From Polyangium jinanense (GTDB lineage: Bacteria; Myxococcota_A; Polyangia; Polyangiales; Polyangiaceae), in contig NZ_JAGTJK010000012.1 in NCBI RefSeq assembly GCF_028435265.1, positions 1 to 38,899 on the forward strand: a DNA stretch of 38,899 nucleotides, read 5' to 3'. The translations under genes were made by a program, and so were the position numbers. This document shows positions 18,770-37,700 of this stretch, in pieces. How positions within the stretch are numbered: position 1 is the first letter of the stretch; every line of letters begins with the position of its first letter. The notes beneath the pieces were generated by a model. That model ran no database searches. It was not told the origin of the DNA and was given only the letters and a program-made list of their open reading frames with translations.

Positions 18770-19789
<1,020 letters not shown>

Positions 19790-21865: not shown

Positions 21866-22797
21866 GCGCGCGCCTCGGCCACGGCGCGCACCACTTCGCG
21901 CACCACGTCGGCGGGAGGCTTGTCCGTGACAGACTCCACCCAGCGCCCGCCCCTTCCGGAAAGCTCCGTCGACCAGCGCTCGGCGATCCCGGCGAGCCGC
22001 TCGCGGTAGACCGCGCGCACCTCCTCGGCGTCGGTCTCCACGACCACGTCGCCCTCGCTCGCGCGGAGCCGCACGTGCCCGGAGAAGCCGAGATCCGCCT
22101 CGTTCGGGTCGAGCACCCGCAGCGCCACGAGCGAGCGCCCGCCGGCTGCGAGCGCCGAAAATGCCGACAGCGCCCGCTCCGGCAGGTCCACGAAATCGCT
22201 CACGAGCACGATCACCGCGCCTCGCCGCGCCCGCCGTGCCACCGGGGCGAGGGCCCGCTCCATCGCCGCCTCGTCCGTGCTCGCGTCACCCGCGGCCGCG
22301 GCCCCTTCGAGCGCCCCGGCCACCCGATCGAACGCCTCGCGCCCGCTCGACGCTGGCAGCGGCAGCGTCCCGCGCCCGCCGATCCACGCGAGGCCCACGG
22401 GATCCCCCGTCGACAGCGCCACGCGTGCCAGCGCCGCGGCCACGAGCGCCCCGTAGGCGAGCTTCGCGCCTGGGGCCCGGCTGCTGCGGTAGGCCATCGA
22501 CGCCGTCGCGTCCACACAGAGCCAGAGCGCGCGATCCGTCTCCGTCTCGAACTCGCGCACCATCATCCGGTCGTGCCGGAGCAGCGCGCGCCGGTCGAAG
22601 AACCGGAGATCGTCGCCGGGCACGTAGGGCCTGTGCCCGCCGAACTCCACGCCGGGCCCTTTGCGCACGCTCCGGTGCCCGCCGGCGTAGACGCCCTCGG
22701 CCAGCGTCCGGGCCCTGAGGCGCAGCGGCGCGAGGCTACCCCAGTCGATGGGGATCCCATCTCTTCCGGAGCGCGACGAAGGGCGAAGCTCGGCCAT
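21862..22797 (-). CDS. DUF58-family protein (vWA-like; normally partner of a MoxR AAA+ ATPase)
   Basis: GIPIDWGSLAPLRLRARTLAEGVYAGGHRSVRKGPGVEFGGHRPYVPGDDLRFFDRRALLRHDRMMVREFE is the DUF58 signature block. Start set at ATG 22797 (conserved block begins 12 aa later) rather than the ORF-track start 23067. Confidence 0.85.
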   Translation of the reverse strand: MAELRPSSRSGRDGIPIDWGSLAPLRLRARTLAEGVYAGGHRSVRKGPGVEFGGHRPYVPGDDLRFFDRRALLRHDRMMVREFETETDRALWLCVDATASMAYRSSRAPGAKLAYGALVAAALARVALSTGDPVGLAWIGGRGTLPLPASSGREAFDRVAGALEGAAAAGDASTDEAAMERALAPVARRARRGAVIVLVSDFVDLPERALSAFSALAAGGRSLVALRVLDPNEADLGFSGHVRLRASEGDVVVETDAEEVRAVYRERLAGIAERWSTELSGRGGRWVESVTDKPPADVVREVVRAVAEARA

Positions 22798-22863
22798 GGG
22801 GACGGTTGAATTAGCCCAACACGACGGGCCCGCCACGACAAAACTTGTGGCAAGGAGAGGACC

Positions 22864-23265
22864 GTGCGCGTGTTCTTCTGCGGCCCTTTCCGCGTGTTCC
22901 TCCTCGCCGCGTTCCTCCCGGCGTGTCGCGGCGGCGACGCCCCCGAGGCCACGCCCGCGCCCGCTCCCCCCGATACCGCATTCTCCGCCGCGCCCTCGGC
23001 CGCGCCCCCGCGCCGCCCGACGATTCGCCATTACCTCGCCCGCACGGCCGAGCGATGCGAGGTTCATTCGGTCGACCGGGACGTCGTCTCCCCGGCCACG
23101 CAGACCCCTTGCCCGCAGGATTTACAGGTCGGCGAGCGCATTCGCGTGATGGGGAAATCGTGTTTGCGGGAGGGGAGCACCGAGCGGACGCAGCCGGTGG
23201 TTTGTCCGGGGGCGCTGCTTTCGGCGGCGCGGGAGCCTCCGGGTCCGGACGGCGGGGCGCCCTGA
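22864..23265 (+). CDS. Small putative lipoprotein (133 aa)
   Basis: GTG start 22864 preceded by AAGGAGAGG. N-terminus MRVFFCGPFRVFLLAAFLPAC (signal plus non-canonical lipobox LPAC). Non-repetitive body with 4 further Cys. Confidence 0.4.
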   Translation: MRVFFCGPFRVFLLAAFLPACRGGDAPEATPAPAPPDTAFSAAPSAAPPRRPTIRHYLARTAERCEVHSVDRDVVSPATQTPCPQDLQVGERIRVMGKSCLREGSTERTQPVVCPGALLSAAREPPGPDGGAP

Positions 23266-23266
23266 A

Positions 23267-24268
23267 TCAGCACCCCCCACGCAGCGCCAGGCGGAGCGGC
23301 TTCGCCACGGAGTCCGCGCCGAACCGGCGTGTTTCGATGATGGGCGAGTCGCACTCCACCAGCATGACCTGATGCACCAGCGCGCCCTCGCCGGTGCGCA
23401 CCACAGTGCTCTTCAGCCGCGTCGCGCGCCAGGGAACCCAGGCCTCGGCGCCGTCGTCGCAGCGCACGGGGGCATAACGCAGCATGAACGGACGGATCAA
23501 GTCCTTGTGCGACGCCGAGAACACGCGTCCACGGGGGAGCTTGCAGCGCGACTCTAGCGCCGCAATGGCACGCTCCCGCCGCTCTCTCTGTTCGGGCAGG
23601 CTGACCCATTTCTGCGCGAGTGCCTCGTCGAGAGCCTCTTCGGTCTTCTCGAGATCTTCTTTCGAGAACGCGGCCGTATCCTCGGCGAGCTCGACCGCGC
23701 TTGAGCGACTGTCCTTCGGCTGGATTTTTCGCGACGCTGCGTCCTCGGGCGAGGCGAGCTCGACGAGCTCGGTCGGACCGGACAAGCGCGCCTGATATTG
23801 CTCGGCCTGGTCCTTGCGCTCGAAGAGCCCAGCCACGACCGCGAGCCCTTTGCGCTTGGGATCGGCGAGCGGCAGATCGTCCAGCGTCGTGACGAACGGG
23901 TATCCCGTCGCGAGCTCCCCGGTCCCCCCGCTGCGGAGTGCCGCTTCGGCCGCATGGGCGTCGACGGCGACGCCGAGGAAGAGTGCATAACGCGGCGCGC
24001 TTTTCTTGCATTCCTCGTCGAGATAAACATCGAGGTGGCAGAAGCCAGCCGGCAAGACATCCTCGGCGGGGATGGGGCGCAGCGCCAGCGTGGGTGCTGG
24101 AGGCGGAGCGGTCGCGGCGGACGCCGGCGCGGCGCTGGTCGTGGAAGCGGTACTCGGCAGGGTTGCTGCCCTGGGGACGACCTGCTGTCCGGCATTGGAT
24201 GACGAGCACGCCGACAGGGACAGGGATACGCACAGCACGACGGTGAATGGCAGGGCAGGTCGATCCAT
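23267..24268 (-). CDS. Putative lipoprotein, unknown function (334 aa)
   Basis: MDRPALPFTVVLCVSLSLSAC lipobox signal then Ser/Thr/Ala/Pro-rich linker and a mixed-composition, Lys/Glu/Phe/Tyr-containing body. The overlapping 413-aa ORF in another frame is Arg-rich and rejected. Upstream in-frame ATG 24322 possible. Confidence 0.6.
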   Translation of the reverse strand: MDRPALPFTVVLCVSLSLSACSSSNAGQQVVPRAATLPSTASTTSAAPASAATAPPPAPTLALRPIPAEDVLPAGFCHLDVYLDEECKKSAPRYALFLGVAVDAHAAEAALRSGGTGELATGYPFVTTLDDLPLADPKRKGLAVVAGLFERKDQAEQYQARLSGPTELVELASPEDAASRKIQPKDSRSSAVELAEDTAAFSKEDLEKTEEALDEALAQKWVSLPEQRERRERAIAALESRCKLPRGRVFSASHKDLIRPFMLRYAPVRCDDGAEAWVPWRATRLKSTVVRTGEGALVHQVMLVECDSPIIETRRFGADSVAKPLRLALRGGC

Positions 24269-24325
24269 GAGGAAAGGCGCTACCACGAGAGATCGGGGAG
24301 CGCAATTCTCACGCCTTGCCACGGC

Positions 24326-24366
24326 TCACGAGAGCAGCTACCCACCTCGCATGCGCGTCGCTTCCG
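24326..24366 (+). repeat. Leader/start-codon repeat, copy A (5' end of BNR lipoprotein gene)
   Basis: ctcacgagagcagctacccacctcgcATGcgcgtcgcttcc. 36/41 identical to copy B at 25038-25078. Confidence 0.6.
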
Positions 24367-24968
24367 TTCTGCTGTTGCTCGCGGGCGTCTTTTCCTGCGC
24401 AATCACCCCCCCGGCCAGCGCTCCCCCGCGTTCCCGCGGGTCGGGGATCGAGCCCGCGACACGAGCATCGCCCGAGGTCCCGGCCGATGAGGTCCGCTTT
24501 CGTCTCCCGCTCCCGCCGCCGGAAACGGGCCGCCTCGTCTTCTTCGATGTCCGCCCCGACCCGCTGCACAGCTTTCCTGCCGTCGCGATCGAGAGCGCCG
24601 GACGTCCGGTGCAGACGGTCGTGCTCGACGGCCCTGACAACGAGCAAATGGGTTGGGAGGCCGTCGCGCGGGCCGGCGAGGCTTCCCGCGAGGTCATCGG
24701 CGTCCTGGACAATCGAATCGAGTCGCCGGGCTGGGACCTGGTCATCGTTGCTTCGACCGATTCCGGCCGCACCTGGGCGCGCCGTGCGACCCTCCGCAAG
24801 GTCTACTACATGGCAACGGTGGAGTCGCTGATTGCGCGATCGCGGGATCATTTCGATCTCGTCCTCCGGCTCGACGACGACTATGGCGCAGGCGTCGCGC
24901 CCGGCCGATATGTCGCTTCGACCGAGGACCGGGGATCTTCGTGGTCTCCGTTCGTCATTGCGCGTTGA
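24351..24968 (+). CDS. Small secreted/lipo-protein with two BNR (Asp-box) motifs
   Basis: MRVASVLLLLAGVFSCAI signal. STDSGRTW and STEDRGSSW match the SxDxGxTW BNR/Asp-box consensus. ORF-track start 24072 is upstream, within the opposite-strand lipoprotein gene (23267..24268), so ATG 24351 was chosen. Confidence 0.55.
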   Translation: MRVASVLLLLAGVFSCAITPPASAPPRSRGSGIEPATRASPEVPADEVRFRLPLPPPETGRLVFFDVRPDPLHSFPAVAIESAGRPVQTVVLDGPDNEQMGWEAVARAGEASREVIGVLDNRIESPGWDLVIVASTDSGRTWARRATLRKVYYMATVESLIARSRDHFDLVLRLDDDYGAGVAPGRYVASTEDRGSSWSPFVIAR

Positions 24969-25037
24969 CGCCAGACTTCCAGCCATGTCGCCCCTGAAGG
25001 CGAAGGCCAGGAAAGAACGCCCCGCTGTCCGGCATTC

Positions 25038-25101
25038 TCACGAGAGCAGCGACCCGCCTCGCATGCGCGTCCGCTCCCTGTTTTCACGCTGGACTGCGTA
25101 G
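25038..25101 (+). repeat. Leader/start-codon repeat, copy B, with 13-codon truncated ORF (MRVRSLFSRWTA*)
   Basis: ctcacgagagcagcgacccgcctcgcATGcgcgtccgctcc, then stop at 25099-25101. Preceded by attctcacg as in copy A. Confidence 0.6.
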
Positions 25102-25638
25102 GCCTCCCGCTCCCGCCCTACGCTGGTTCGTGGAACACACGCCCGGGCCACCCGGCCGCCCCCTGTTTCGCGGAAAAGCTCTGACCGTCGTCGCGTCCGC
25201 CGACGGTTCGGCTCCGTGACCGTCCCGGGCTCGACCTCCGCGCTGGAATTCCTTTGCGAAACAGCGCCGGGCCGTCTCGCCAGCCAGCCGTTGTTTTCCG
25301 CAACCACGCCGGGACGCGGACGCGGCCCATCGTTGTTTCTGCCGGAAGCGACGAGGGCCCGAGCGCCGATCCTGTCCTGCCGCGGAACGATTCCCGGCCC
25401 GCCGCGCTTCTCCCCGTTCGGCAGCCGAACAGGCCCCGTCCTCCGAGGCCCGAGCCAGTCTGGGCGGCTTCGAAAGGATGTGCTCGGCGCGCCGTTGCTG
25501 TCTCACGGGCTCGCTTCCCTCGACATCAACGGAACACGATAGCGTCCCATGCTCTGCACCCACCCACGCCGAGCTGGCGTGGCGTGGTCCGTCACATTTG
25601 TCTTGACCGTCCATGGCGGCCTGGGTAGCGTCCCCACG

Positions 25639-26514
25639 ATGGCAGCTCGCATTCTTTCCTATCGCATCGGTCTTTTCACGCTCCTCCGGGAGCTGCAATA
25701 CACCCTTTCCCACGCGCGCCAGGAGCCTCTCGCCGCGGTTTATGTGCCGGTCTTCCAGGAGCTCCGCGAGGAATGGAAGCTCGTCCTCCTCGAAGAAATC
25801 GAGATCCTCGATGGGATGTCGCAGGCGCAAGCCGCCGTCGACAAGGCCGACGGCGGGCTCGACGTCTTCGCCGGGCGTGCCTCGCGTGGCATTGACGACA
25901 CCACCGAAGGCCCTACGCGCAAGCAGCTCCGCACCGCGCTTTTCAAGAACAAGCCGCTCGGGAAGTTCCGCCGGCCCGTCCTCGCCGGACAGCTCGACAA
26001 CATGAGCGACTGGGCCGAGACGCTCGCGAAATGCGGCGTGCCCGCGCTCGTGGCCATGGCGCCCGAGGCGGAGACCCTCGTCTTCGCGGGCAAAGACGCC
26101 GAGCAATTGCGAAAGACCGCGCAGTCGAGCAATCGCGATTTCCGCGATGTCGGCAGGCGCAAGCAGTTCATCGACAAGGTCAACGCCGCCCGCAAAGAGG
26201 CGCACGGCGGGCTCGGAAAGCTGCCCTTCCAAAACCCCGCGCTCCCGCACGATTTCGCCGACGGTTTCTTCTACAGCGAGCCGCCTCGCGAGCAGGAGGA
26301 GACGATCGACGAGGTCAAGGCGGCGATCGCCGAGCTCACCGCCCAGCTCGAAGAGCGCAACGCCCTCCTGAAGAAGCTCGAAGAAGAAGCCGAGGCCGAG
26401 GCCCGCGCCGCCGAGGAGCGGCAGGCCCGGGCGCAGGCGGCCGAGGAGCTCGAAGCGCAGGCGAAAGCGCTGCTCGAACAGGCCGCCGCGCTCAGGGCGA
26501 AGGCCAGGAAATAA
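25639..26514 (+). CDS. Hypothetical protein with C-terminal coiled-coil (291 aa)
   Basis: MAARILSYRIGLFTLLRELQYTLSHARQEPL... mixed composition (K, F, Y, W, N present). C-terminal ELTAQLEERNALLKKLEEEAEAEARAAEERQARAQAAEELEAQAKALLEQAAALRAKARK coiled-coil. The antisense 388-aa ORF is Arg/Gly-rich and rejected. Confidence 0.6.
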   Translation: MAARILSYRIGLFTLLRELQYTLSHARQEPLAAVYVPVFQELREEWKLVLLEEIEILDGMSQAQAAVDKADGGLDVFAGRASRGIDDTTEGPTRKQLRTALFKNKPLGKFRRPVLAGQLDNMSDWAETLAKCGVPALVAMAPEAETLVFAGKDAEQLRKTAQSSNRDFRDVGRRKQFIDKVNAARKEAHGGLGKLPFQNPALPHDFADGFFYSEPPREQEETIDEVKAAIAELTAQLEERNALLKKLEEEAEAEARAAEERQARAQAAEELEAQAKALLEQAAALRAKARK

Positions 26515-26560
26515 CGCCTCGCGCCCGGCCCTCCTCCACAGCCCTTGCCCGCCACGCGCG

Positions 26561-27718
26561 ATGGCGCGTACCCTCCCAACCTTGGCGATCAGGGTTCAGG
26601 GGAAAATCGGCGACAAATACGAGCTCTCCGCCGTCCTCGGAGAGGGGGCGATAGGCACGGTCTACGCCGCGAAGAACCTGCGAACCGGCCGGCGCGTGGC
26701 GATCAAGTCGCTGCGGGGGAGCGTCCTCGACCCGCGGGATCCCGAGCTTTTGCGCTTCGACCAGGAGGCGCGCATCGCGGGTTCGCTCGAATCGGAGCAC
26801 ATCGCCCAGGTGCTCGACATCGAGCGGGATCCCGCCACGGACGCCCCGTTCCTCGTGATGGAACTGCTCCGCGGGGAGGACCTGCAATCCCTCCTCGACA
26901 GGGTCGGCCCCTTGCCGGTCGACGTGGCTTTGCGGATCGCGGCGCAGGTTTGCGCGGGGCTCGCGGCGGCGCATGCGGCGGGCGTGGTGCATCGGGACAT
27001 CAAGCCCGGCAATCTCTTTCTCGCGCGGCGGGAAGGCGGCGCAATCGTGGTCAAGATCCTCGATTTCGGCCTCGCCAAGATCCGGCGCCTCCCGCCGGAT
27101 CTTTCCACGAGCGCCGCGCCTTCGGCCCTCTCGGCGCCGCAGCAGTCCATGACCGAGACGGGGCAGCTCCTCGGCTCGCCGCTTTACATGTCGCCGGAGC
27201 AGCTCGACGGCGCGAAAGGCATCGACGCACGCAGCGACCTGTTTTCGCTGGCGGTGACGCTGTTCGCGATGCTCACCGGAAAGCCGCCGCATGCGGACGT
27301 CAAATCGTTCCCCTTGCTGCTCAACCATATCGCGACGAAGCCGATGCCCACGGTGCGCGAGGTCGTGCCGGGGGTCGGCCCCGACGTGGAGGCGCTCCTC
27401 GAACGGGCGTCACGGCTTTCGCGTGAAGAACGGTTCTCCAGCGCGGCGGCGATGCGCGAAGCGATGAAGCCCCTCTTGCCGGGAGGCATGGCGCTGCGGG
27501 AGGACATGCTCGTCGGCCGCAGGGACGCGTCCAGCGAGGTGGGCATGACCCACATGGAGAGCGATTCGTACGCCATGATCGAGCGCGCGGTGGCCGAGGA
27601 ACGGGCCCCGACGGAGGCGACGGTCTCGTCGCGCCCCCGGCGATGGCCTGTGTGGCTCGGGATCGCCGTCGTCCTGGTGGCGGCGGTCGTGATGGCCCTC
27701 GGGCTCCTTGGGCGCTAA
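26561..27718 (+). CDS. Ser/Thr protein kinase with C-terminal transmembrane anchor
   Basis: Hanks kinase motifs: GEGAIGTVYAA, AIK, HRDIKPGNLFL, DFGLAK, SPEQ. C-terminal WPVWLGIAVVLVAAVVMALGLLGR TM helix. Confidence 0.9.
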   Translation: MARTLPTLAIRVQGKIGDKYELSAVLGEGAIGTVYAAKNLRTGRRVAIKSLRGSVLDPRDPELLRFDQEARIAGSLESEHIAQVLDIERDPATDAPFLVMELLRGEDLQSLLDRVGPLPVDVALRIAAQVCAGLAAAHAAGVVHRDIKPGNLFLARREGGAIVVKILDFGLAKIRRLPPDLSTSAAPSALSAPQQSMTETGQLLGSPLYMSPEQLDGAKGIDARSDLFSLAVTLFAMLTGKPPHADVKSFPLLLNHIATKPMPTVREVVPGVGPDVEALLERASRLSREERFSSAAAMREAMKPLLPGGMALREDMLVGRRDASSEVGMTHMESDSYAMIERAVAEERAPTEATVSSRPRRWPVWLGIAVVLVAAVVMALGLLGR

Positions 27719-27726
27719 GGAGGGGC

Positions 27727-29445
27727 ATGAACCAGCGGGAAATCCTTGCTTTTATCGACCGGCTCCGGAAGGCGAGGACCTTCGAGGACGCCGCGCACAC
27801 CTTGCTGCGCGCGATGCTCGACGCGGCGCTCGCGGCGCTCGCGGAGAGCGGCTTCGCCGGCCGCGGCAAGATCCTCCGCGGCATGGCGCACTGGCGGCCC
27901 GGCGACGGCTACCGGCGACTGGTCCTTCTCGACGATACGCAGCGCGGCGGCGAGCCGACCATCAACTATTTGCCCTCCGTGAGCGCGTGGCGCTGGGTCG
28001 TCACGCGCGAATGCCCCATTGCGATCGACGTCCCGCTCGGTCGCGTATGGACGTGGCAAAACGAATCCGCGAACCTGTTCCAGGAGGGCGGATTTTCCGG
28101 TCAGGACAGCGTGCTTCGGCTGACGAGCCGCGACACGAGCCACCTCTACGCGATCCCGCTGCGCACCCTGCACGGCGCGATCGAGGGAATGGCCACGGTC
28201 GAGGCGGGGTGCCCGAGGGCCGTCGGCGACGATTTCATCTTCCCGGCCATTCACGAATCACTGGAGCTCCTCGCCGACCTCGCGGCGCCTTACCTCGCGA
28301 CCCTTCCGCCCCGGCCCGCGGCGACTGGCGCGACCGACGATCTCTTGCCCGTCATGGGCCAGAGCATGGCGGGCTTGATCGACATGCTCCGCGTCTTCGC
28401 GCAGCAGGAGGAGACCCTGCTCATCGGCGGTCCCACGGGTGCGGGCAAATCGCGCCTCGCGCGCTGGTGCCACGCGCGATCGGTCCGGCGTGAGGCGCCC
28501 TTCGAGGTCCTCGACCTCATCGCCGTGCCCGAAGAGCTGCAAATGGCGGAGCTCTTCGGCTGGAAAAAGGGCGCGTTCACGGGCGCGGTGCGCGACACGC
28601 CCGGGTGCATCACGCGGGCCTTCAAGGGGACGTTGTTCATCGACGAGATCGACAAACTCTCGCTGAAGGCGCAGGCGGGATTGCTCCAGCTCCTCGAATC
28701 GCGCACGTATCGCCCGATCGGGGACGGCGCGCGCGAGCAGCAGGCGAACGTGCGTTTCATCGTGGGGAGCAACGTCGACCTGTACGACCAGGTGAAGGCC
28801 GGACGGTTCCGGGAGGATCTTTATTATCGGATCAACGTGCTCCCGGTGCAGATCCCCCCGCTCGACGAGCGCCGGGACGAAATTGCGGAATGGGCGCGCT
28901 TCATGGCCTCGAGGCGCCATCGCGAATCGGTGCCGGGCGGGGAAGCGCGGATCGCGGCGGGCGTGGAGACGCTTCTCGGTGAGCATGCCTGGCCGGGCAA
29001 TTTGCGTCAGCTCGACAACGTCGTTCGCCGGGCCTATGCGCTCGCGCTCATGACGCACGGTGAGGCAGGGTCGGAGATCTTGCTGGAGGAAAAGCATTTC
29101 GCGCGCGCCCTGAGCTACGAGCGGGGGAGCGGGCGAAGGTCGACGCTCGACGACCTGCGCGTCGCGGCGGGCGCGATCGTGGAAGAGGCCGAGCGGCAGC
29201 AGGGAAAGGGCCTCGTGTTCGACCTGGATCTCTGCGATGCATTCCGCGGCCTCGTGCTCGGCACGGCGGTGGAGCGGCTCGGTAGCCGGGACGCGGCGTT
29301 CCGGCTTTTCGGGAAGGGCGCGCAGGTGCAGGCGCGCAATCACCACAAGATGCTGCGGCGCGAGCTGGAGAAGGTCGAGGCGCTTTGCAAGGCGCTCGGG
29401 GAGGAGAGCGGGCCCTTTCGGGAGCTGAGGGACGACGAGGCCTGA
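27727..29445 (+). CDS. Sigma-54-dependent transcriptional activator (bacterial enhancer-binding protein) with GAF-like N-terminal sensor domain
   Basis: Walker A GGPTGAGKS, GAFTGA sigma-54 contact loop (KGAFTGA), Walker B LFIDEID, arginine finger region REDLYYRINV. Perfect SD AAGGAGGGG immediately before ATG 27727. Starts 9 nt after the kinase stop. Confidence 0.9.
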   Translation: MNQREILAFIDRLRKARTFEDAAHTLLRAMLDAALAALAESGFAGRGKILRGMAHWRPGDGYRRLVLLDDTQRGGEPTINYLPSVSAWRWVVTRECPIAIDVPLGRVWTWQNESANLFQEGGFSGQDSVLRLTSRDTSHLYAIPLRTLHGAIEGMATVEAGCPRAVGDDFIFPAIHESLELLADLAAPYLATLPPRPAATGATDDLLPVMGQSMAGLIDMLRVFAQQEETLLIGGPTGAGKSRLARWCHARSVRREAPFEVLDLIAVPEELQMAELFGWKKGAFTGAVRDTPGCITRAFKGTLFIDEIDKLSLKAQAGLLQLLESRTYRPIGDGAREQQANVRFIVGSNVDLYDQVKAGRFREDLYYRINVLPVQIPPLDERRDEIAEWARFMASRRHRESVPGGEARIAAGVETLLGEHAWPGNLRQLDNVVRRAYALALMTHGEAGSEILLEEKHFARALSYERGSGRRSTLDDLRVAAGAIVEEAERQQGKGLVFDLDLCDAFRGLVLGTAVERLGSRDAAFRLFGKGAQVQARNHHKMLRRELEKVEALCKALGEESGPFRELRDDEA

Positions 29446-29450
29446 GCGCC

Positions 29451-29545
29451 CCGGGCTCCGCGTCCACGGATGACGCACGCGCGTACCTACGTTACGCGCG
29501 CCGAGCCTCGCTCGGGCCCCGCGTCCGAGCGAGGCTCGGGTGCAC
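29451..29545 (+). repeat. Double-dyad intergenic element, copy 1 (candidate enhancer/UAS)
   Basis: Dyad A CGCGCGTA-cctacgt-TACGCGCG (29478-29500). Dyad B CCGAGCCTCGCTCGG-gccccgcgt-CCGAGCGAGGCTCGG (29501-29539, perfect 15-bp arms). About 85% identical to 31447-31545. Confidence 0.6.
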
Positions 29546-29560
29546 GCAGCTCTCGCGTGT

Positions 29561-29577
29561 CGGCATGCGGGTTGCTT
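29561..29577 (+). promoter_or_regulatory. Candidate sigma-54 (-24/-12) promoter for astacin-propeller gene
   Basis: cGGCATGcgggTTGCTt versus consensus TGGCACG-N4-TTGCW. GG at 29562-63 and GC at 29574-75 (12-nt spacing). About 64 nt upstream of ATG 29641. Confidence 0.55.
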
Positions 29578-29640
29578 TGCGGCTATCCGCACCGCGAGCA
29601 ACGCGGCCCAACACAGTATCCCGCTGGAGCTTCGACACCC

Positions 29641-31431
29641 ATGAAACGTTATCATTCCATGGCGATTGCCATCGCGTCGGTCCTTGCCGTTTCCTACTCG
29701 TCGACCGGCTGCTCTGGCCCGGCCGAACCCTCCGCCGAGGAAAACGTTCAGACGGACGTGGCCCCGCTTTATGTAGCCTCGTCGAAGCTGTGGAGCGGAG
29801 AGTCCGTCCAGGTCTGCTGGGAAAACCCCAGCGCGGCGCCTCAAGCCGAGAGAGACTGGGTCAGACAAGCCGTCCTCGCGTCGTGGGACGCCCACACGCG
29901 GGTGGATTTCAATGGCTGGGGTACATGCACCAGCTCGTCGAATGGAATTCGCATCCGAATCTCCGATGAAGGCCCACACACAGATGGCCTCGGCACCGAT
30001 CTCGACGGCGAAACGGATGGTATGGTATTGAACTTTACCTTCCAAAACTGGTCCCCGGACTGTCAGAACTCGCGCCGGTTCTGCATCGAAGCAATCGCGG
30101 TGCACGAGTTCGGGCACGCGCTCGGATTCGCTCACGAGCAGAATCGGCCCGACACCCCGTCGTGGTGCGATGAGGAGCAGGGGAGCGACGGTGACCTCAC
30201 GCTAAACTTGTGGGATCTGGATTCGGTGATGAATTACTGCAATCCGGAATGGAACGGCAACGGCACGCTCAGCGAGAGCGACATCCAGGGCGCGATCCAG
30301 ATGTACGGCACTCCGCGATGGATAACGGAGTACGGCTATGTTCAGGGATGGCGTGTGGACAAGCACCCGCGTATGATGGCGGACGTCGACGAGGATGGAA
30401 AGCAGGATGTCGTCGCATTCGGCGATGCGGGGACGCTCGTGTCCAGGTCCACCGGGACCGGCTTCATGGCGCCGGAACTATGGGTGGACCAATATAATTA
30501 CAATCACGGCTGGCGCACCGAATATCACGAGCGGATGATGGCGGATGTCAACAACGATGGGAAGCCGGACGTGGTCGGCTTTGGGGACGCAGGCGTGCTG
30601 GTCTCGCTCTCGACGGGAAGCTCGTTTACGGCGCCGTCACTCTGGGTCGGCGATTATGGCTGGAATCAGGGCTACCGCGTGGACAAGCACCCGCGCATGA
30701 TGGCCGACGTCAACAACGATGGGAAGCCGGACGTCGTCGCTTTCGGGGACAATGGCGTGGTGGTCTCGCTCTCGACGGGAAGTTCGTTCACGGCGCCGTC
30801 GCTCTGGCTCGCCAATTACGGCTACAATCATGGCTATCGCATCGACCAGCACCCACGCATGATGGCCGACGTCAACAACGATGGGAAACAAGACGTCGTC
30901 GTCTTTGCCAACAACGGCGTGTACGTGGCGCTCTCGACGGGAAGCTCCTTCTCGACGCCATCGCTTTGGGTCGGGAATTATGGTTACAACCACGGCTACC
31001 GCGTGGACATGCATCCGCGGATGACGGCCGATGTCAACGGCGACGGGAAGCAGGACATCGTTGCCTTCGGTGACAACGGCGTGGTCGTGTCTACCTCGAC
31101 GGGAAGCTCCTTCACGACGCCCCAGCTCTGGGTCAACAGATTCGGGTATAATCAAGTCGGATGGCGCGTGGAACAGCACCCGCGCATGATGGCGGATGTA
31201 GACAATGACGGGAAAGATGACGTGGTCGGCTTTGGGGGCAACGGCGTTTATATCTCGCGCTCTACCGGGAGCTCGTTCGAGCTGCCGAGCCACCTGGTAG
31301 AAGGCTTCGGTTATGATTTCGGATGGCGCGTGGACATGCACCCGCGCATGATGGCGGATATCAATGGTGATGGAACGCAGGACGTGGTCGGCTTTGCAAA
31401 TGAAGGCGTCTTCGTCAGACAGACCTACTGA
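29641..31431 (+). CDS. Secreted lipoprotein: astacin-like zinc metalloprotease domain fused to 7 FG-GAP-like Ca-binding propeller repeats
   Basis: Lipobox signal MKRYHSMAIAIASVLAVSYSSTGC. HEFGHALGFAHEQNRPD matches the astacin signature HExxHxxGFxHEQxRxD. Met-turn SVMNY. Then 7 tandem 54-aa repeats, each with a DxNxDGxxD Ca-binding loop (ADVNNDGKPDVV), FGD.G and STGSSF. Confidence 0.85.
   Translation: MKRYHSMAIAIASVLAVSYSSTGCSGPAEPSAEENVQTDVAPLYVASSKLWSGESVQVCWENPSAAPQAERDWVRQAVLASWDAHTRVDFNGWGTCTSSSNGIRIRISDEGPHTDGLGTDLDGETDGMVLNFTFQNWSPDCQNSRRFCIEAIAVHEFGHALGFAHEQNRPDTPSWCDEEQGSDGDLTLNLWDLDSVMNYCNPEWNGNGTLSESDIQGAIQMYGTPRWITEYGYVQGWRVDKHPRMMADVDEDGKQDVVAFGDAGTLVSRSTGTGFMAPELWVDQYNYNHGWRTEYHERMMADVNNDGKPDVVGFGDAGVLVSLSTGSSFTAPSLWVGDYGWNQGYRVDKHPRMMADVNNDGKPDVVAFGDNGVVVSLSTGSSFTAPSLWLANYGYNHGYRIDQHPRMMADVNNDGKQDVVVFANNGVYVALSTGSSFSTPSLWVGNYGYNHGYRVDMHPRMTADVNGDGKQDIVAFGDNGVVVSTSTGSSFTTPQLWVNRFGYNQVGWRVEQHPRMMADVDNDGKDDVVGFGGNGVYISRSTGSSFELPSHLVEGFGYDFGWRVDMHPRMMADINGDGTQDVVGFANEGVFVRQTY
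30319..31428 (+). repeat. Tandem in-frame coding repeats, period 162 nt (54 aa), about 6.8 copies
   Basis: Repeat starts (Trp codons) at 30319, 30481, 30643, 30805, 30967, 31129, 31291. Units W..YGYNHGYRVD.HPRMMADVNNDGK.DVV.FGDNGV.VSLSTGSSFT.PSL with extended near-identical nucleotide stretches. Confidence 0.85.
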
Positions 31432-31446
31432 GGTCCGCTCCCATCG

Positions 31447-31545
31447 CCCGGAGCTCCGCGTCCACGGATGACGCACGCGCGTACCTACGTTACGCGCGCC
31501 GATCCCCGCTCGGGCCCCGCGTCCGGGCGAGGATCGTGTAGACGC
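31447..31545 (+). repeat. Double-dyad intergenic element, copy 2 (candidate enhancer/UAS)
   Basis: ccggagctccgcgtccacggatgacgcacgCGCGCGTAcctacgtTACGCGCGccgatccccgctcgggccccgcgtccgggcgaggatcg. Dyad A identical to copy 1. Dyad B retains 12/15 symmetry with one compensatory G:C to T:A change. Confidence 0.6.
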
Positions 31546-31591
31546 AGCTTTCACGTGTGCCTTTCGGGCCTGAAGCACCTCCGGACGACCT

Positions 31592-31608
31592 CTGGCACGA
31601 CGGGTGCA
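31592..31608 (+). promoter_or_regulatory. Candidate sigma-54 (-24/-12) promoter for downstream lipoprotein gene
   Basis: cTGGCACGacggGTGCAa. TGGCACG is a perfect -24 element. GC at 31606-07 is 12 nt after the GG. About 27 nt before SD AGGAGG and the TTG start at 31646. Confidence 0.6.
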
Positions 31609-31645
31609 ATGTCCGTGATCGTCACCTTCGACAGGAGGCTCTCTC

Positions 31646-32572
31646 TTGAACCCTGGAACCACGCTGCTTCGTTGTGCTTCGCCGTTCGTGTTCATCGCCA
31701 TGAGCCTCTATGGCCTGGGTTGCATGGCAGACCCCGAGGATCCGGGTTGGGATCCCGAGGGTGAGGTGCTCGGGGAGGCTCATCTCGGGTCAGGTGGCGA
31801 TCCGGGGACCACCAATCACTTGAGGTATCGGGTCACCCATAATCATGGCGTGCAGCGGACCGTTCGTGTGATCGGTAATGCCGCGCTGGCCCCTTCCGGC
31901 TTCCTGCCCAGCATGCCCGACATGCCATCGCCCAGCGCGGCGGGTGAGTGGGCAGGCGCCAGGGTCGAGTTTCTGGAGAAGCTCATCGGTTGCGCCTTGG
32001 CCGAGGGGACCACCGTGGGGGACACGGGACATATTGTCGGGTACATGACGAGTGGGGGGTTCTCCGTGCCCGTGTTCCAGCAGTACCATGGTGAGATCGG
32101 TCTTGCGCCGGACTGGAGCACGCGCGCGCTCACGACGGATGAAAAGAGGTGGGTCACGGCCTGCGTCGTGGCGCGCACCAACCGCTACGGCGCGACGATC
32201 AACATCCTGCTCGGAGGCGCTCACCCGGAGATCACCTATCGAGCCAGCGAGGCCTACCCCTACACGGTGCCGGAGTCGACGGTGTGGGGCAATATGTTCG
32301 ATTCTACAATGCCGCTGGGTAGCAACACCGATAGCACTCCAGCGTTCAATGCGTACATCTGTAGCGACGTGACGTTCTGCAGCTCTGCCGAGGGGGCGAC
32401 CCTCCGGGCATGTGACGCGACGTATACGCCCTGCGGCTTCAGCTACATGGGACTCTGCGACACCTTCGATGCCTTCTGCAGCGATCCGTTGCATTCGACG
32501 TTCGAGGGCTGCTCGAACCGCTCCTACGCGATTCACAGCTACTTGAAGGCGAGCGACGCGACTTGCCCTTGA
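31646..32572 (+). CDS. Secreted lipoprotein of unknown function with Cys-rich C-terminus (308 aa)
   Basis: TTG start 31646 with AGGAGG 6 nt upstream. Signal MNPGTTLLRCASPFVFIAMSLYGLGC (lipobox LGC). Mixed amino-acid composition, 12 Cys, 9 of them in the C-terminal third. Lower-GC codon usage. Confidence 0.6.
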   Translation: MNPGTTLLRCASPFVFIAMSLYGLGCMADPEDPGWDPEGEVLGEAHLGSGGDPGTTNHLRYRVTHNHGVQRTVRVIGNAALAPSGFLPSMPDMPSPSAAGEWAGARVEFLEKLIGCALAEGTTVGDTGHIVGYMTSGGFSVPVFQQYHGEIGLAPDWSTRALTTDEKRWVTACVVARTNRYGATINILLGGAHPEITYRASEAYPYTVPESTVWGNMFDSTMPLGSNTDSTPAFNAYICSDVTFCSSAEGATLRACDATYTPCGFSYMGLCDTFDAFCSDPLHSTFEGCSNRSYAIHSYLKASDATCP

Positions 32573-32614
32573 GCGCCCGCTCCGTCCGACGTTCCTGCGT
32601 TGCCGGACACTCGC

Positions 32615-35600
32615 TCACTCCATTCCCTTGGCCTCCTGAATGTTCGCCTGATGCGCCGCCGCGAGCCGCGGGTTTTCCCGGATCGCTGCCACGAACGCCT
32701 CGCCCGCCGCGCGCGCGGCTTTCTTTCGATCCTCTCCGCGTGAGACCCTCGCCCGTACCAGGAGGAGCTCCCCCTTCGCCACGAACGCTTGCGCGCTGTG
32801 CGGGTGAATGGCGAGCGCCTTCTCTGCGAATTCGAGCCCCACGTCGACATCAGCGTTCGCGCTTTTCTCGTGCCCATCCAACCACGGGGCCTTTTTCGCG
32901 TGAATCTCGGCGAGCATCTGATAGGGCCGAGGGTCGTTGCGCTCCTTCGCGACGAGAGGTCGCAGGACGGCCGCCGCGGCATCGAATCCTTGCTCGCGCG
33001 CCTCGCCGCTCACCGCGCGCGCGCGGGCGGCGAAGAGGTGGAGCCTGGCCAGGATATGGTGAGAATCGATGTCCCACGTGTCCTCCTCGGCGACCTTCTC
33101 CACGCGGTCCCGCACCGAAAGGAGCTCGGGGACGGGCAGGAGGCGGTTGGAGAGTGTGTGCTCGGCTTCGAGCAGCCGGAGCTCGGCGACCTCCATCAAC
33201 AAGAAGCCCGTCTCCGTGCCTGGCGTCGCGAATGCATGGATCTTCTCCAGGCCTGCGGCGATCGAGGCGCGAGGATCCTTGCCGACCGAGAGCTCGTACG
33301 CAGCCCGAACCCGCAACGATTTGGCCGCGTAGTAGGCGGGTAGAAAGCCTCCGAGGCTCCGCTGTTCGACCAGGGCTACGGCGTTCGAGAGTGCATCCAC
33401 GCTGCTCTGCGCTTCGAGCCCGTGCTCGGTCTCGTACACGAGCCTGTAGATGGCAGCGCGGATCTTGCCGAACATGGGCAAGGTGAAGCTCGGGTCCACT
33501 TCGATGGCTTGATCGAACCGCTGCGATGCGCTCCCGAGGAGCTGGCGAGGATCCTCGCCGTGGAGACGGTCGAACTCCGCTTTTATCAGATACGTTTGTC
33601 CGAGTTCGTTCAGCGCCCAGGTAAACCGAGGCTCGACGTCGAGGACGCGGTGGAACGCCGCTATCGCATCCTCGGCGGTCACGCGCTCGCCGCGCGCGGC
33701 CTGCCGCGCTGCCCGGACGTTCAATGTGGCAGCCAGCGCGTAAAGCGCCATCGCGTCCCGAGGGCGGACGCGTACGGCCTCTTCCACGGCCTGGAGGACG
33801 GCTTGCTGAGCCGCGTCCGCGTCATTCGCCTGGGCATTTTCCGTGAAAAATCGGTAATAAAGCGCGAGCGCACGTTCGACCCGCGCGGCGCCATCCAGGC
33901 TGCTTGATTGTACCGCCCGGGCGCAGGTGGCCTCCGCGTTACCGAACTCGATCTGCGCAGGTTTTCCCAGCGCTCCTGCCGCGAGCCCCATCTTCTCCCA
34001 AAGCTCACACTCCGCCCGATGCACCTCCGGATCACTCTCAGCCATCTCCGCCGCGACCTTGTACGCCTCGGCCGCCGGGCCAAACGACAGCATCATCTTG
34101 TCCCAATCGAACGCCGCGTCGTGCCGATACTTGCTCCCCTCCGCGAACAATGCATCCGCCTCGAGCTTCTTCGCCTCATACATCCATGGCGCCTGCTCGA
34201 AGGCCTCCCGCGCCTTCGCCCGCGCCTCCTCGTTTTTCCCCTCGTACAACGCGATGAGCCCCTCCACGTACGCCGGCGCCTCGATCTCCGCCCCCGACGC
34301 CGCCCTCAAATGACCGAGCGCCGGAGCTCGCAGCGCCGCCGCGAGCTCCGCCTCCCGCTTCTTGCGCTCCTCCGCGTTCGTGATCCGCTTCGTCTTCGCG
34401 AGCGCCCGCCGATAAAGCTCCCCGAGCGTCCGCCCCAGCGCGTATTCGAGCTCCGGCGATCGATACCCCGCGCCGACCGCCTTCTCCAGATGCTCCCGCG
34501 CCTTTTCCGGATCCCCCAGCGCGAGATATCCCCGCCCGAGCGCGTAATGCCCCGGGCCCTCGCCCACGCGCCCCGCCTCCTTCATCCGCTCCTCGATCGC
34601 CGAGAGCTTCCGCCGCACCACGTCCCGCTCGCGCTCCACGTCGTGCAGCGGCAGCTCGTAGGCCGCGCGCAAGAAGAGCTCCATCTCCTTCACCCGCTCG
34701 CCGAGCTCCTGCGCGATCCTCGCCTCGGCTGCCGCCTGCTGCCGTGCCTTCCACCACACGCCGGCGAGCGCCAGCGCCGCGACGAGGAGCACGCCGGAGA
34801 CCGCCGTCGCGAGCTTGTGTTTCCGCGCCTTCTTCCACAGCACGTACCCCACCGACGCCCGCCGCGCCAGAATCGGCTCTCCGTCCAAAAACCGCTGCAA
34901 ATCCTCGGCGAGCGCCCGCGCCGATTCGTATCGCCGCCCCGGATCTCGCTCCAGGCATTTCATCACGATCGTCTCGAGATCCGCCGGCACCCCTTTCTTC
35001 ACCTTCCCCAGCGCAGGCGCCTCCTCGAAGGCGACCATCATCAAAAGCTTCCACGTGTGTGGCGCGACGAACGGCGGCCGCTCCGCGACGACGTCGTAGA
35101 GCGTCGCGCCGAGCGAATATACGTCCGAGCGTCGATCCAGCGCTCGCACGTCGCCCTTTGCTTGTTCCGACGACATGAACGCCGGGGTCCCCAGCACCGC
35201 CCCCGTCACCGTCTCTCCTTTGTCCGCGACCTCCCGCGCCAGACCGAAATCCATCACGTAGGGCTTGATGTCCCCGTCCGCGCTCCTTTCGACCATGATG
35301 TTGCCGGGCTTGATGTCCCGGTGAATGAGCCCGAGCCGGTGCGCTTCGTGGACCGCGGCCGAGACCTCCCGCATCAGCTTCACGCGTTGTTCGAGCGATA
35401 GCTGTCCGGCCATTTTCGAGAGCGGTTCACCCTCGATGTATTGCATTGCGATGAAAGGCTCGCCGTCGGCCTCTCCGGCCTCGTAGATCCGGCAAACGTT
35501 CTCGTGCTGGACCTTCGCCTGCGACCGCGCCTCCTGGAGGAAACGCCGCCCGAGCTCCGGATCGCTGCCCTTGAGCAGCTTGAGCGCCACCGTGCGTCCG

Positions 35601-35818: not shown

Positions 35819-36002
35819 TCAACCACCCCTTGCAGGCAGGGCATTCCGAGCAAGAAGCTTACCAGCCGGGCGGGCGGCGCGAAAGCCGTCATCCGCTCGT
35901 CCGTTCCGTCCGCGCCTCGCCTGTTGCTCGACGAAATGTCATGCCCCCGCAACACCGCCTCCCCCCTCCGACATCCAACCCGAGATCGAGGAGGATCTTC
36001 CG

Positions 36003-37655
36003 ATGGAGCGCTGGGACACGATCGTCGTTGGGTCGGGCGCGGGGGGGCTCACGGCTGCGCTCGCGCTCGCGCGCGCGGGGCAGCGGGTGCTCGTCCTCGA
36101 ACAGCATTACTTGCCGGGCGGCTGGACGCACAGCTTCGCGCTCGAAGGGTATCGATTCAGCCCTGGCGTCCATTATATCGGCGAGCTCGGCCCCGGCCAG
36201 TCCGCCCGCGCGCTCTACGAAGGCCTCGGCCTCGGCTCGGACCTCACGTTTCACGAGCTCGCGCCGGACGGCTTCGACCATTTCCTCCTCGGCGGCGAGC
36301 GCTTCGATGTCCCGCGTGGCTTCGATCGCTATTTCGAGCGCCTCGTCTCCCGCTTCCCCCACGAGCGCAAGGGGCTCGCGCGATACTTCGACGTCATCGG
36401 CCGCATTGTCGAGGGCACCCTCCGCTGCGAGGAGCTCCTCGTCTCCCCGCGCGGCGCCCTCGAGCTCCCGTTCCGCTCGAAAGACCTCTTCGTGTGGGGC
36501 CTGCGCACCCAGCACGCCCTCCTCGACAGCACCATTCGCGACCCGCTCCTCCGCGGCATCCTCGCCGCGCAATCGGGCAACCATGGTTTGCCCCCATCGC
36601 GCGTCTCGCTCCCCCTCCATGCCCGCATGATCAACCATTACTACGACGGCGGGTATTATCCGCGCGGCGGCGCCAAACGCATTCCGATGGCCATGATCAA
36701 GGCCCTCCGCAGGCGCGGCGGCGAGATTCGTCTCCGCACCCGGGTCCGCCGCATCCTCGTCGAATCCGGCCGCGCGGCCGGCGTCGAACTCGAATCGGGC
36801 GAGCGTATCGCCTCCCGCGCCGTCGTCTCCAATGCCGACCCCGCGATCACCTTCGGCAAGCTCCTCGAACCGCCGCACGGCGAGCGCGAGCGCCGGAAGA
36901 CCGGCCGCATGGAATACTCCGTCGGCATCCTCAGCGTCTTTTGCGCTACCGACCTCGACCTACCCGCGATGGGCCTCGATTCGGGCAATTACTGGTGTTA
37001 TCGCACCCTCGACGTGAACGGCGTCTACGAGCGCGCCCTCCACGCGCTCCCCCACGGAATCATCGAGGGTCTCTTCCTCACCGTCACCACCCTGAAGGAC
37101 CCCGGCCACGCACCGAAGGGCCACCATACCCTGGAGCTCTTCACGTTCGTCCCGTACGAACCCTTCGAACGCTGGGCCGGCACCGCGGCGGCGCGCCCCG
37201 AGGGATACCGCGACCTCAAGGAGCGCCTCGGCGACGCCCTGATCGCCGCGGCCGAGCGTGTGATCCCCGGACTCGGCAAGAACCTCACCTTCCGCTCCGT
37301 GGGCACGCCCCTCACGAACGATTTTTATTGCGAGACCCACCGCGGCTCGAGTTATGGCACGGCGAAGAGCCCCCTCCAGCTCGGCCCCTTTTCCTTCCCC
37401 ATTCGTTCCAGTGTCCCCGGCCTTTACAGCGTCGGCGCGAGCACGCTCAGCCATGGCGTCGCGGGCGCGGCCACCTCCGGCCTCTTCGCGGCCCGTGACA
37501 TCCTCGGCGTCCGCCACATCGCAGACCTCCTCGCCCCGCCCGACGGCTCGCTCCAGATCGTCCCGGCCGCCGAGCTCGCGCCCGCCTCCAGGACCCGCGT
37601 ACACGCGCCCGCCGCGGCGCACGACGACGACACCGAGGACGCCCTCGCTTCCTGA
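36003..37655 (+). CDS. FAD/NAD(P)-binding oxidoreductase, phytoene desaturase (CrtI)-like family
   Basis: N-terminal dinucleotide fold DTIVVGSGAGGLTAALALARAGQRVLVLEQHYLPGGW. 550 aa. GAGGAGGA upstream of ATG 36003. Divergent from the kinase gene. Confidence 0.85.
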   Translation: MERWDTIVVGSGAGGLTAALALARAGQRVLVLEQHYLPGGWTHSFALEGYRFSPGVHYIGELGPGQSARALYEGLGLGSDLTFHELAPDGFDHFLLGGERFDVPRGFDRYFERLVSRFPHERKGLARYFDVIGRIVEGTLRCEELLVSPRGALELPFRSKDLFVWGLRTQHALLDSTIRDPLLRGILAAQSGNHGLPPSRVSLPLHARMINHYYDGGYYPRGGAKRIPMAMIKALRRRGGEIRLRTRVRRILVESGRAAGVELESGERIASRAVVSNADPAITFGKLLEPPHGERERRKTGRMEYSVGILSVFCATDLDLPAMGLDSGNYWCYRTLDVNGVYERALHALPHGIIEGLFLTVTTLKDPGHAPKGHHTLELFTFVPYEPFERWAGTAAARPEGYRDLKERLGDALIAAAERVIPGLGKNLTFRSVGTPLTNDFYCETHRGSSYGTAKSPLQLGPFSFPIRSSVPGLYSVGASTLSHGVAGAATSGLFAARDILGVRHIADLLAPPDGSLQIVPAAELAPASRTRVHAPAAAHDDDTEDALAS

Positions 37656-37700
37656 GCGACGACAAACCCCCTTTCCCGCGCCCACCCTTTCCGCTATCGA

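Follow-up and report, generated by a model that had tools for sequence, protein, structure and literature searches.

Which genes does a sigma-54 activator control when its own gene lies between a protein kinase gene and two genes for secreted proteins? Myxobacteria encode at least 50 sigma-54 activators each, most of them without a known target or binding site, and the question is raised by a locus of Polyangium jinanense at positions 26561-32572 of a 38.9-kb stretch of contig NZ_JAGTJK010000012.1 (38,899 nucleotides, hereafter the window). The span holds four co-oriented genes, encoding a Ser/Thr protein kinase (STPK), an enhancer-binding protein (EBP), a lipoprotein that joins an astacin-like zinc metalloprotease to an FG-GAP beta-propeller, and a Cys-rich lipoprotein (Table 1). 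A preliminary description of this DNA had counted five co-oriented genes; the fifth open reading frame (25549-26514), in which no domain was detectable, lies upstream of the span. The same description had proposed that the EBP directly drives the secreted pair, and the conservation of promoters and upstream dyads reported below lends this proposal comparative support. Our analysis suggests that the locus is probably a local sigma-54 regulon of P. jinanense, switched by the adjacent EBP.

Results

Sigma-54 promoters upstream of both lipoprotein genes

All GG-N10-GC sites on both strands of the window were scored against the consensus TGGCACG-N4-TTGCW. The single best site in the window was promoter B, upstream of the Cys-rich gene, with 11/12 matches, and promoter A, upstream of the metalloprotease gene, was one of three sites at 10/12 in joint second place. 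Both are intergenic and correctly oriented, 53 nt (site at 31593) and 80 nt (site at 29561) upstream of the respective start codons, with GG and GC at the exact 10-nt separation. No sigma-70-type promoter was found in 26300-32800. The near-consensus sigma-54 promoters that had been noticed before both lipoprotein genes were thus recovered as top-ranked sites when the suggested scoring was carried out, here by consensus count rather than with a position weight matrix.

The two promoters differ in their distribution. Promoter A was identical in the loci of two close relatives (L004 and L005; loci compared here carry L numbers) and was seen only in the three closest genomes. Promoter B was also present in L004 and L005, and was conserved in P. 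fumosum as TGGCATGGGGGGTGCA at the same distance to the start codon; the P. fumosum Cys-rich protein shares 58% identity with that of the window, and the promoter nonetheless kept its position and sequence. A sigma-54 match of at least 10/12 was located just upstream of 10 of the 11 Cys-rich homologues examined, including copies in L007, L008, L010, L027, L028 and L029. These findings supported the view that both -24/-12 elements behave as real promoters. The one exception, in Polyangium sp. 15x6 (L008 7753-7960), was a Cys-rich paralogue directly downstream of the EBP gene, with an upstream region of TTGACA-type, sigma-70-like character.

Tandem dyads in a duplicated upstream element

Each promoter is preceded by one copy of a direct repeat (copies A and B), 90% identical over 114 nt and present only twice in the window. 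The similarity ends just before the -24 element, and the promoters and leaders of the two genes are unrelated. In each copy, two GCGT-N9-ACGC dyads start exactly 21 bp from one another and thus lie on one side of the helix; the window has four matches to this pattern, all of them inside the two repeats. The distance from the dyads to the promoter downstream is about 70-130 nt (centres at 72-127 nt), the geometry of an upstream activating sequence (UAS), and this arrangement was found in several lineages. Comparison of six copies, taken from three genomes, showed no change in any GCGT or ACGC core; the substitutions fell in the spacer of dyad 1.

The association with sigma-54 sites was also seen on a larger scale. 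The extended form GCGTACCY-N5-ACGC occurred eight times without redundancy in about 454 kb of loci, each time 70-115 nt upstream of a sigma-54 match. Tandem pairs, defined by at least 15/16 matches and a spacing of 20-23, numbered 12 in 489 kb, compared with 0-2 (mean 0.4) in ten Markov simulations, and 10 of the 12 pairs were located 80-160 nt upstream of a sigma-54 site of at least 10/12. This excess, together with the position relative to sigma-54 sites, is the main support for reading the element as an enhancer and for assigning it to the EBP family.

The preliminary description had recognised a double palindrome in UAS position. The position was borne out by the dyads, but the conserved part is the pair of GCGT-N9-ACGC dyads 21 bp apart; the first of these dyads had been missed, and the second palindrome of that description is the GC-rich one (14-bp arms, 9-nt loop) between dyads and promoter. 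Covariation in this GC-rich palindrome was no better than in shuffled alignments (274/500), and it was absent from P. fumosum, L007, L008 and M. xanthus. The comparison indicates that it is lineage-specific, and that the tandem dyads are the conserved core of the repeat. Reading the repeat as an RNA element or terminator was rejected, as Rfam at E<=1 returned only noise and covariation did not exceed that of shuffles; the hairpin was not called a terminator because it has no T-run. A third half-site (GCGT about 40 nt after dyad 2) was likewise dropped, being present in the clade of the window and in M. xanthus and not in P. fumosum or L007.

Copy A of the window is about 26 nt shorter than copy A of L004 and L005 (11830-11858); both relatives have the segment concerned, CTTTCACGTGCCTTTCGGGCCTG (at 29545-29560 in the window), in copy A, and none of the B copies lacks it. 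As it is missing only from copy A of the window, a small deletion is indicated in this copy, shortening the distance between the dyads and promoter A by about 24 nt.

Co-occurrence of the dyads with the EBP family

A genome scan with the alignment of the GAF domain of the EBP returned 23 loci. In the Polyangium lineages (L003-L010) the EBP gene was accompanied by genes for a kinase, a Cys-rich homologue and, in most cases, the TPR kinase, in varying order and orientation, with the Cys-rich homologues adjoining the EBP and STPK genes. The two closest genomes, Polyangium sp. 6x1 and sp. y55x31, showed 91-93% nucleotide identity across the locus. The search for the gene trio in other genomes, suggested at the outset, therefore gave a divided answer: STPK, EBP and Cys-rich genes recur in L003-L010, while the protease is confined to the three closest genomes.

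In independent lineages, the dyads occurred together with the EBP family. In P. fumosum one exact dyad and one with a single mismatch, 21 bp apart, lie midway between the divergent sigma-54 promoters of an M4 protease gene and the Cys-rich gene. Dyad pairs upstream of a sigma-54 match were also found in L007 (22 bp apart, one dyad exact and the other with one mismatch), L008 (32 bp apart) and L028 (22 bp apart), and in a Sorangium locus (L014) about 4 kb separated the EBP gene from a single dyad with a promoter. In M. xanthus (L001 7713-7830) and Corallococcus (L031 2698-2810), two dyads 21 bp apart precede the EBP orthologue itself, about 70-95 nt upstream of a TGGCACG-N4-SCGCA element, with spacers that differ between the two genera. 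The orthologue thus appears to be autoregulated in Myxococcaceae. The proposed tie between the upstream dyads and the EBP is strengthened by this co-localisation in Polyangium lineages, Myxococcus and Corallococcus. At the M. xanthus locus, a heme oxygenase gene converges on the 3' end of the EBP orthologue.

Several related loci were arranged differently. In L010 (12921-13192), a kinase gene and a Cys-rich gene converge, and the 300-bp, A+T-richer spacer that separates them contains six GCGT-N9-ACGC dyads; these include two pairs 22 bp apart and share the extended consensus TGCGTC-N7-RACGCA. Paralogous triads of small kinase, Cys-rich gene and convergent TPR kinase gene without an EBP gene were found in L027 (4736-10158), L029 (6727-10125) and L028 (2914-7039), and the Cys-rich gene of these triads keeps a sigma-54-type promoter. 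In P. fumosum and Polyangium sp. 6x1, a paralogous EBP gene (L022 11845-13890; L023 from 11894 onward) lies downstream of a gene for a kinase fused to an FGE-sulfatase-like domain; after it come a sigma-54-like promoter, TGGCCCGACCCTTGCA, and the gene of a GH5 cellulase-like lipoprotein, a further instance in which this EBP group adjoins a secreted hydrolase.

The enhancer-binding protein

The EBP gene begins 8 nt after the stop codon of the STPK gene, in a gap that contains GGAGGGG. The PF00158 match covers residues 212-374 of the protein, Walker A (GPTGAGKS) and Walker B (FIDEID) are legible, and the GAFTGA loop ELFGWKKGAFTGA is intact and essentially invariant across 15 orthologues. The N-terminal region showed a GAF fold, in agreement with the earlier observation of a GAF-like domain instead of a receiver; no Pfam family, including GAF, GAF_2 and GAF_3, matched residues 1-205 at E<=10. 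Conservation within the family extends to the C-terminal region, where the R-N-x-x-K of RNHHK is invariant; this region is presumably the DNA-binding domain.

The family is conserved at full length across Myxococcota (89% identity in P. fumosum, 55% in M. xanthus). None of the equivalog models was reached, the best being RtcR with 217 bits against a cutoff of 650, followed by NorR (203 against 476 bits) and NifA (192 against 529 bits). No published gene name for the M. xanthus orthologue was found among the cluster members or in the literature searched.

The metalloprotease gene and its origin

The metalloprotease showed 100% identity to a P. jinanense protein; exact-sequence look-ups of it and of the EBP (two start choices) gave no match. 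It carries the zinc motif HEFGHALGFAHE and the Met-turn SVMNY, and the signature HExxHxxGxxHE was found as HEFGHALGFAHEQNRPD. The Pfam matches to the catalytic domain were weak (Astacin 3.6e-06, 27.2 bits against a cutoff of 22.5; Matrixin 2.1e-06), and the FG-GAP region forms about seven blades encoded by 162-nt repeats. Its signal peptide ends in Cys (..SSTGC), as does that of the Cys-rich protein, in line with the assignment of both genes to lipoproteins in the preliminary description.

The gene was found only in the three closest genomes and is absent in P. fumosum, and its G+C content is 0.60 compared with 0.67-0.69 of its neighbours. P. fumosum instead has an unrelated M4 (thermolysin-type) protease lipoprotein gene, divergent from the Cys-rich gene and sharing the same enhancer. 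The lower G+C content, the narrow distribution and the flanking direct repeats of the enhancer fit a recent insertion, and the comparison indicates that the metalloprotease gene was added recently together with the second enhancer copy. The insertion possibly occurred by recombination between two enhancer copies: the enhancer (114-140 nt) flanks the protease gene as a direct repeat, as may be expected from a single crossover between such copies. The unrelated proteases, M12A here and M4 in P. fumosum, would then have been recruited independently.

The suggestion of a self-contained, possibly horizontally acquired cassette can accordingly be kept at most for the metalloprotease gene, recent in distribution and deviating in G+C content. 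For the rest of the locus it did not hold, since the STPK, EBP, Cys-rich and TPR kinase genes are syntenic across the Polyangium clade and look vertically inherited. The closest protease/propeller homologue outside Polyangium (54% identity) was located on a Haliangium ochraceum-like contig (L030 3133-6848), next to the divergent gene of an unrelated EBP in which the loop reads GAFSGA. Between the two genes the sigma-54 match was weak (8/12), and this locus was not used as evidence.

The Cys-rich lipoprotein

The Cys-rich gene starts with TTG in the window and with ATG in relatives, and the end of the signal peptide (..LYGLGC) is invariant in the family. The protein matched nothing in Pfam or NCBIfam, and the AlphaFold model from 15 sequences was unusable (pLDDT 49). 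A word-based search found 14 relatives, all from Polyangium or unassigned metagenome contigs, and a profile search collected 1639 cluster representatives with the cutoff at E<=1e-3 and, with the stricter cutoff of E<=1e-10, 817. These relatives have no Pfam model for the domain, and the long ones are fused to RCC1-like propellers or HYR/Ig domains. Invariant motifs of the family (P0269-P0415) include GLAPxW, TACxxxRxN and ESxxWGNxF.

The distribution of the Cys-rich gene and of its promoter indicates that it is the ancestral target. As two unrelated metalloprotease genes came under the same enhancer beside it, a functional tie of the Cys-rich protein to proteolysis can be speculated.

The kinase beside the EBP

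The STPK is tail-anchored, with one C-terminal hydrophobic, transmembrane segment (WPVWLGIAVVLVAAVVMALGLLGR), and the hydrophobic tail is common to the orthologues in L003, L007 and L008. The membrane-anchored kinase directly before the EBP was thus described correctly from the outset, with a Pkinase match, a hydrophobic tail and a short intergenic gap. The STPK gene adjoins the EBP gene in every close Polyangium locus, and three kinase architectures abut members of the EBP family in Sorangiineae: the tail-anchored form, a form fused to FGE-sulfatase and a form of 844-923 aa. This recurrent adjacency suggests that the adjacent kinase feeds into the EBP switch, which is the weakest step of our proposal. 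For the earlier idea that the kinase possibly controls the EBP, adjacency is likewise the support, and the orthologues of Myxococcus and Corallococcus have no kinase gene beside them. Conserved candidate phosphosites of the EBP are S84 and S/T138.

Neighbouring features of the window

The gene for the large TPR kinase, convergent to the Cys-rich gene, is its conserved neighbour, with synteny kept in L003-L008 and L027-L029. At 35849-35864 on the minus strand, 30 nt upstream of the start codon of the TPR kinase gene (35818), lies a third sigma-54-like element (TGGTAAGCTTCTTGCT, 10/12). Elements like it stand before the orthologues in L005 (identical), L004 (TGGTATGTTGCTTGCC), L028 (TGGTATGCTCGTTGCC) and L007 (CGGCACGTGCTTTGCC); in P. 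fumosum the -12 part is lost. No GCGT-N9-ACGC dyads were found upstream of the element in the window. A further match (TGGCATGCGTGATGCC, 9/12; 37986-38001, minus strand) overlaps the listed start of the open reading frame 36960-37997, which has no Pfam match and may not be a real gene.

The region upstream of the kinase gene (about 23232-26542) differs among close relatives, being absent from Polyangium sp. 6x1 and only partly common to y55x31 and P. fumosum; its open reading frames have no Pfam match. The G+C content of the window ranges from 0.60 to 0.76 and is unusually high (0.75) at 20001-23000, and an acidic GAC/GAG codon repeat is located at 19502-19642.

Table 1. Coordinates of the genes, protein domains and regulatory elements of the P. 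jinanense locus.
Feature	Position	Strand	Evidence
Hanks-type Ser/Thr protein kinase, 385 aa	26561..27718	+	Pkinase 4e-40
EBP, 572 aa	27727..29445	+	Sigma54_activat (PF00158) 4.6e-48 and AAA lid
EBP residues 1-205, GAF-fold sensory domain	27727..28341	+	Fold; no Pfam match
EBP residues 212-440, AAA+ sigma-54 interaction domain and lid	28360..29046	+	Sigma54_activat 4.6e-48, AAA_lid_14 4.2e-09
EBP C-terminal ~130 residues, presumed DNA-binding domain	29047..29445	+	Family conservation
Repeat copy A, enhancer region upstream of metalloprotease gene	29447..29560	+	114-nt direct repeat
Dyad A1 GCGTCCACGGATGACGC, proposed EBP binding site	29460-29476	.	
Dyad A2 GCGTACCTACGTTACGC, proposed EBP binding site	29481-29497	.	
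GC-rich palindrome, between dyads and promoter	29502..29538	.	88% of cells paired
Promoter A -24/-12, CGGCATGCGGGTTGCT	29561..29576	+	10/12 consensus
Lipoprotein, astacin-like zinc metalloprotease with FG-GAP beta-propeller, 596 aa	29641..31431	+	FG-GAP_3 1e-26
Repeat copy B, enhancer region upstream of Cys-rich gene	31445..31558	+	114-nt direct repeat
Dyad B1, proposed EBP binding site	31458-31474	.	
Dyad B2, proposed EBP binding site	31479-31495	.	
Promoter B -24/-12, TGGCACGACGGGTGCA	31593..31608	+	11/12 consensus
Cys-rich lipoprotein, function unassigned, 308 aa	31646..32572	+	Cys signal peptide, no domain match
Convergent large Ser/Thr kinase with TPR repeats, 1067 aa	32615..35818	-	Pkinase 4.8e-39 and TPR matches

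Discussion

The proposed mechanism and known systems

In the proposed mechanism, EBP dimers would bind the two GCGT-N9-ACGC dyads at each promoter. The GAF domain presumably holds the ATPase off, and a signal, either a ligand or a modification, would relieve this inhibition as in other GAF-type EBPs. The activated EBP would then assemble an AAA+ ring that contacts sigma-54 RNA polymerase via GAFTGA by DNA looping, and ATP hydrolysis would open both -24/-12 promoters. The expected output is the expression of the protease/propeller protein and the Cys-rich lipoprotein, both secreted. The system is an uncharacterised regulon of a well-known type, and its architecture and logic are otherwise textbook.

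The UAS of NtrC-type activators, as at glnAp2, likewise consists of two same-face dyads about 100 bp upstream of the -24/-12 element, which promote the oligomerisation of dimers. NtrC-type sites are TGCACC-N5-GGTGCA, in contrast to GCGT-N9-ACGC here, and the NtrC type has a receiver where the EBP of the window has a GAF sensor. For M. xanthus, Jelsbak, Givskov and Kaiser reportedly proposed in 2005 that EBPs with an FHA domain are controlled by Ser/Thr kinases. The pairing of Hanks-type kinase signalling with sigma-54 activators in a myxobacterium is common to both cases, but those EBPs carry the phosphothreonine-binding FHA domain, whereas the EBP of the window has a GAF domain and neither FHA nor receiver; if the kinase acts on it, the mechanism would have to differ. 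When compared with the Group III GAF-type EBPs (NifA, NorR, FhlA, and Nlh1/Nlh2 of Aquifex), the GAF domain of the window is too divergent for Pfam, the C-terminus is not a recognisable Fis-type helix-turn-helix (HTH), and the predicted targets are extracellular.

A close and recently described parallel is PexR (MXAN_1565) of M. xanthus, a GAF-AAA+-DNA-binding domain EBP that recognises tandem interrupted palindromes before sigma-54 promoters and in which the GAF domain exerts auto-inhibition; its sites adjoin its own gene, it binds CACCG-N6-CGGTG, typically in three repeats, and its targets are peroxiredoxin and catalase (PMC12754779). The system described here belongs to the same phylum and shares the three-part architecture, the tandem palindromes and the location of binding sites next to the activator gene. 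The family is another one: the M. xanthus orthologue (55% identity) is a different gene, whose neighbour is the heme oxygenase gene in place of ahpC. The proposed site consists of GCGT-N9-ACGC dyads, two of them with a spacing of 21 bp, in place of the CACCG-N6-CGGTG repeats, and the predicted targets are secreted lipoproteins in place of peroxiredoxin and catalase; PexR has no kinase partner, and its metal ligands H102/H120/C122/D140 have no obvious counterpart pattern in the EBP of the window. The identification of this EBP as PexR was thus rejected on its neighbours (ahpC, ccp or rbr in the case of pexR), UAS and orthology, a distinction made without direct alignment.

Alternative explanations

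That the 114-nt repeat is non-regulatory, be it a REP/MITE-like element, a terminator hairpin or debris of a duplication, with -24/-12 matches that arose by chance in a G+C-rich genome, is very improbable. The two copies are indeed 90% identical with a strong GC hairpin just after the stop codons, and four GCGT-N9-ACGC matches in the window are not above chance (2.66 expected). Just two copies are present in 39 kb, however, both at orthologous positions in three genomes, the hairpin has neither covariation nor T-run nor Rfam match, and the promoter matches are the top-scoring ones of the window. What recurs in distant, otherwise unalignable loci is the dyads and promoters, not the rest of the repeat. 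It is more difficult to assign the dyads to a protein. Myxobacterial genomes encode dozens of EBPs, so that a paralogue could bind them, and EBP paralogues indeed occur in the same genomes (L022, L023). For the C-terminal domain, neither Pfam at E<=10 nor a profile search against PDB sequences gave an HTH signal, and its alignment to E. coli Fis by hhalign had a probability of 0.1, so DNA binding by the EBP is an assumption. L028 has dyads and a promoter with no EBP gene on its 12.7-kb contig, the six dyads of L010 have no sigma-54 site nearby, and no dyads were found upstream of the EBP gene in the other Cystobacterineae loci L015-L020 and L024. In the Cys-rich paralogues of L027 and L029, a sigma-54 promoter is combined with upstream repeats of the GCCTGCAG type in place of GCGT-N9-ACGC, suggesting a different activator, so that Cys-rich genes would answer to more than one activator type. 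The copies in the window, L004 and L005 come from close relatives and are thus not independent observations, and promoters were scored by simply counting consensus matches rather than with a trained matrix. Most of these points weigh against the regulon that we propose. An arrangement in which promoters and dyads are real but are served by a paralogous EBP or another dyad-binding protein, the adjacent EBP having other targets, nonetheless seems improbable: the tandem dyad stands beside the EBP family in at least six lineages from two suborders, the dyads of Myxococcus and Corallococcus are directly upstream of the EBP gene with no other plausible target there, and the paralogue loci L022 and L023 have no dyad. 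We thus infer that the EBP of the window, rather than another, binds the dyads.

A further alternative concerns the signal. The EBP may drive both genes and sense only a small ligand or metal through its GAF domain, with the kinases not upstream of it; on this reading, a signalling unit of its own, made up of the small kinase, Cys-rich protein and large TPR kinase, would happen to share the locus. This is quite possible, if short of probable. Such triads indeed occur without any EBP gene in L027 and L029, and the EBP orthologues of Myxococcus and Corallococcus, as noted, lack an adjacent kinase, two observations that also count against a role of the kinase in the proposed switch. Moreover, the invariant His, Cys, Asp and Glu of the GAF domain are compatible with a ligand or metal pocket, and in PexR the GAF domain suffices to gate an EBP of this kind. 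On the other side stand the kinases of three unrelated architectures found directly beside EBP-family members in Sorangiineae, for which inherited synteny alone is not an easy explanation. The fuller scheme, in which Hanks-type kinases gate the GAF-type EBP by phosphorylation-dependent relief and the regulon grows by enhancer recombination, is doubtful.

Implications

Our reading of the locus as a local regulon of the adjacent EBP provides a testable prediction for one widespread family of GAF-type EBPs, comprising its site, its local targets, and its autoregulation in Myxococcus and Corallococcus; as M. xanthus, a genetically tractable organism, has an orthologue, the prediction can be tested quickly. 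The locus would also be a clean example of regulon growth, in which enhancer duplication accompanied the insertion of a new gene, and secreted metalloproteases of two unrelated types were acquired separately beside the Cys-rich gene. If the fuller scheme is true, Sorangiineae would have a kinase-to-sigma-54 pathway that uses neither FHA nor receiver domains and controls pairs of metalloprotease and Cys-rich protein. A real link between the kinase and the EBP would extend kinase-to-sigma-54 signalling beyond the FHA-domain activators.

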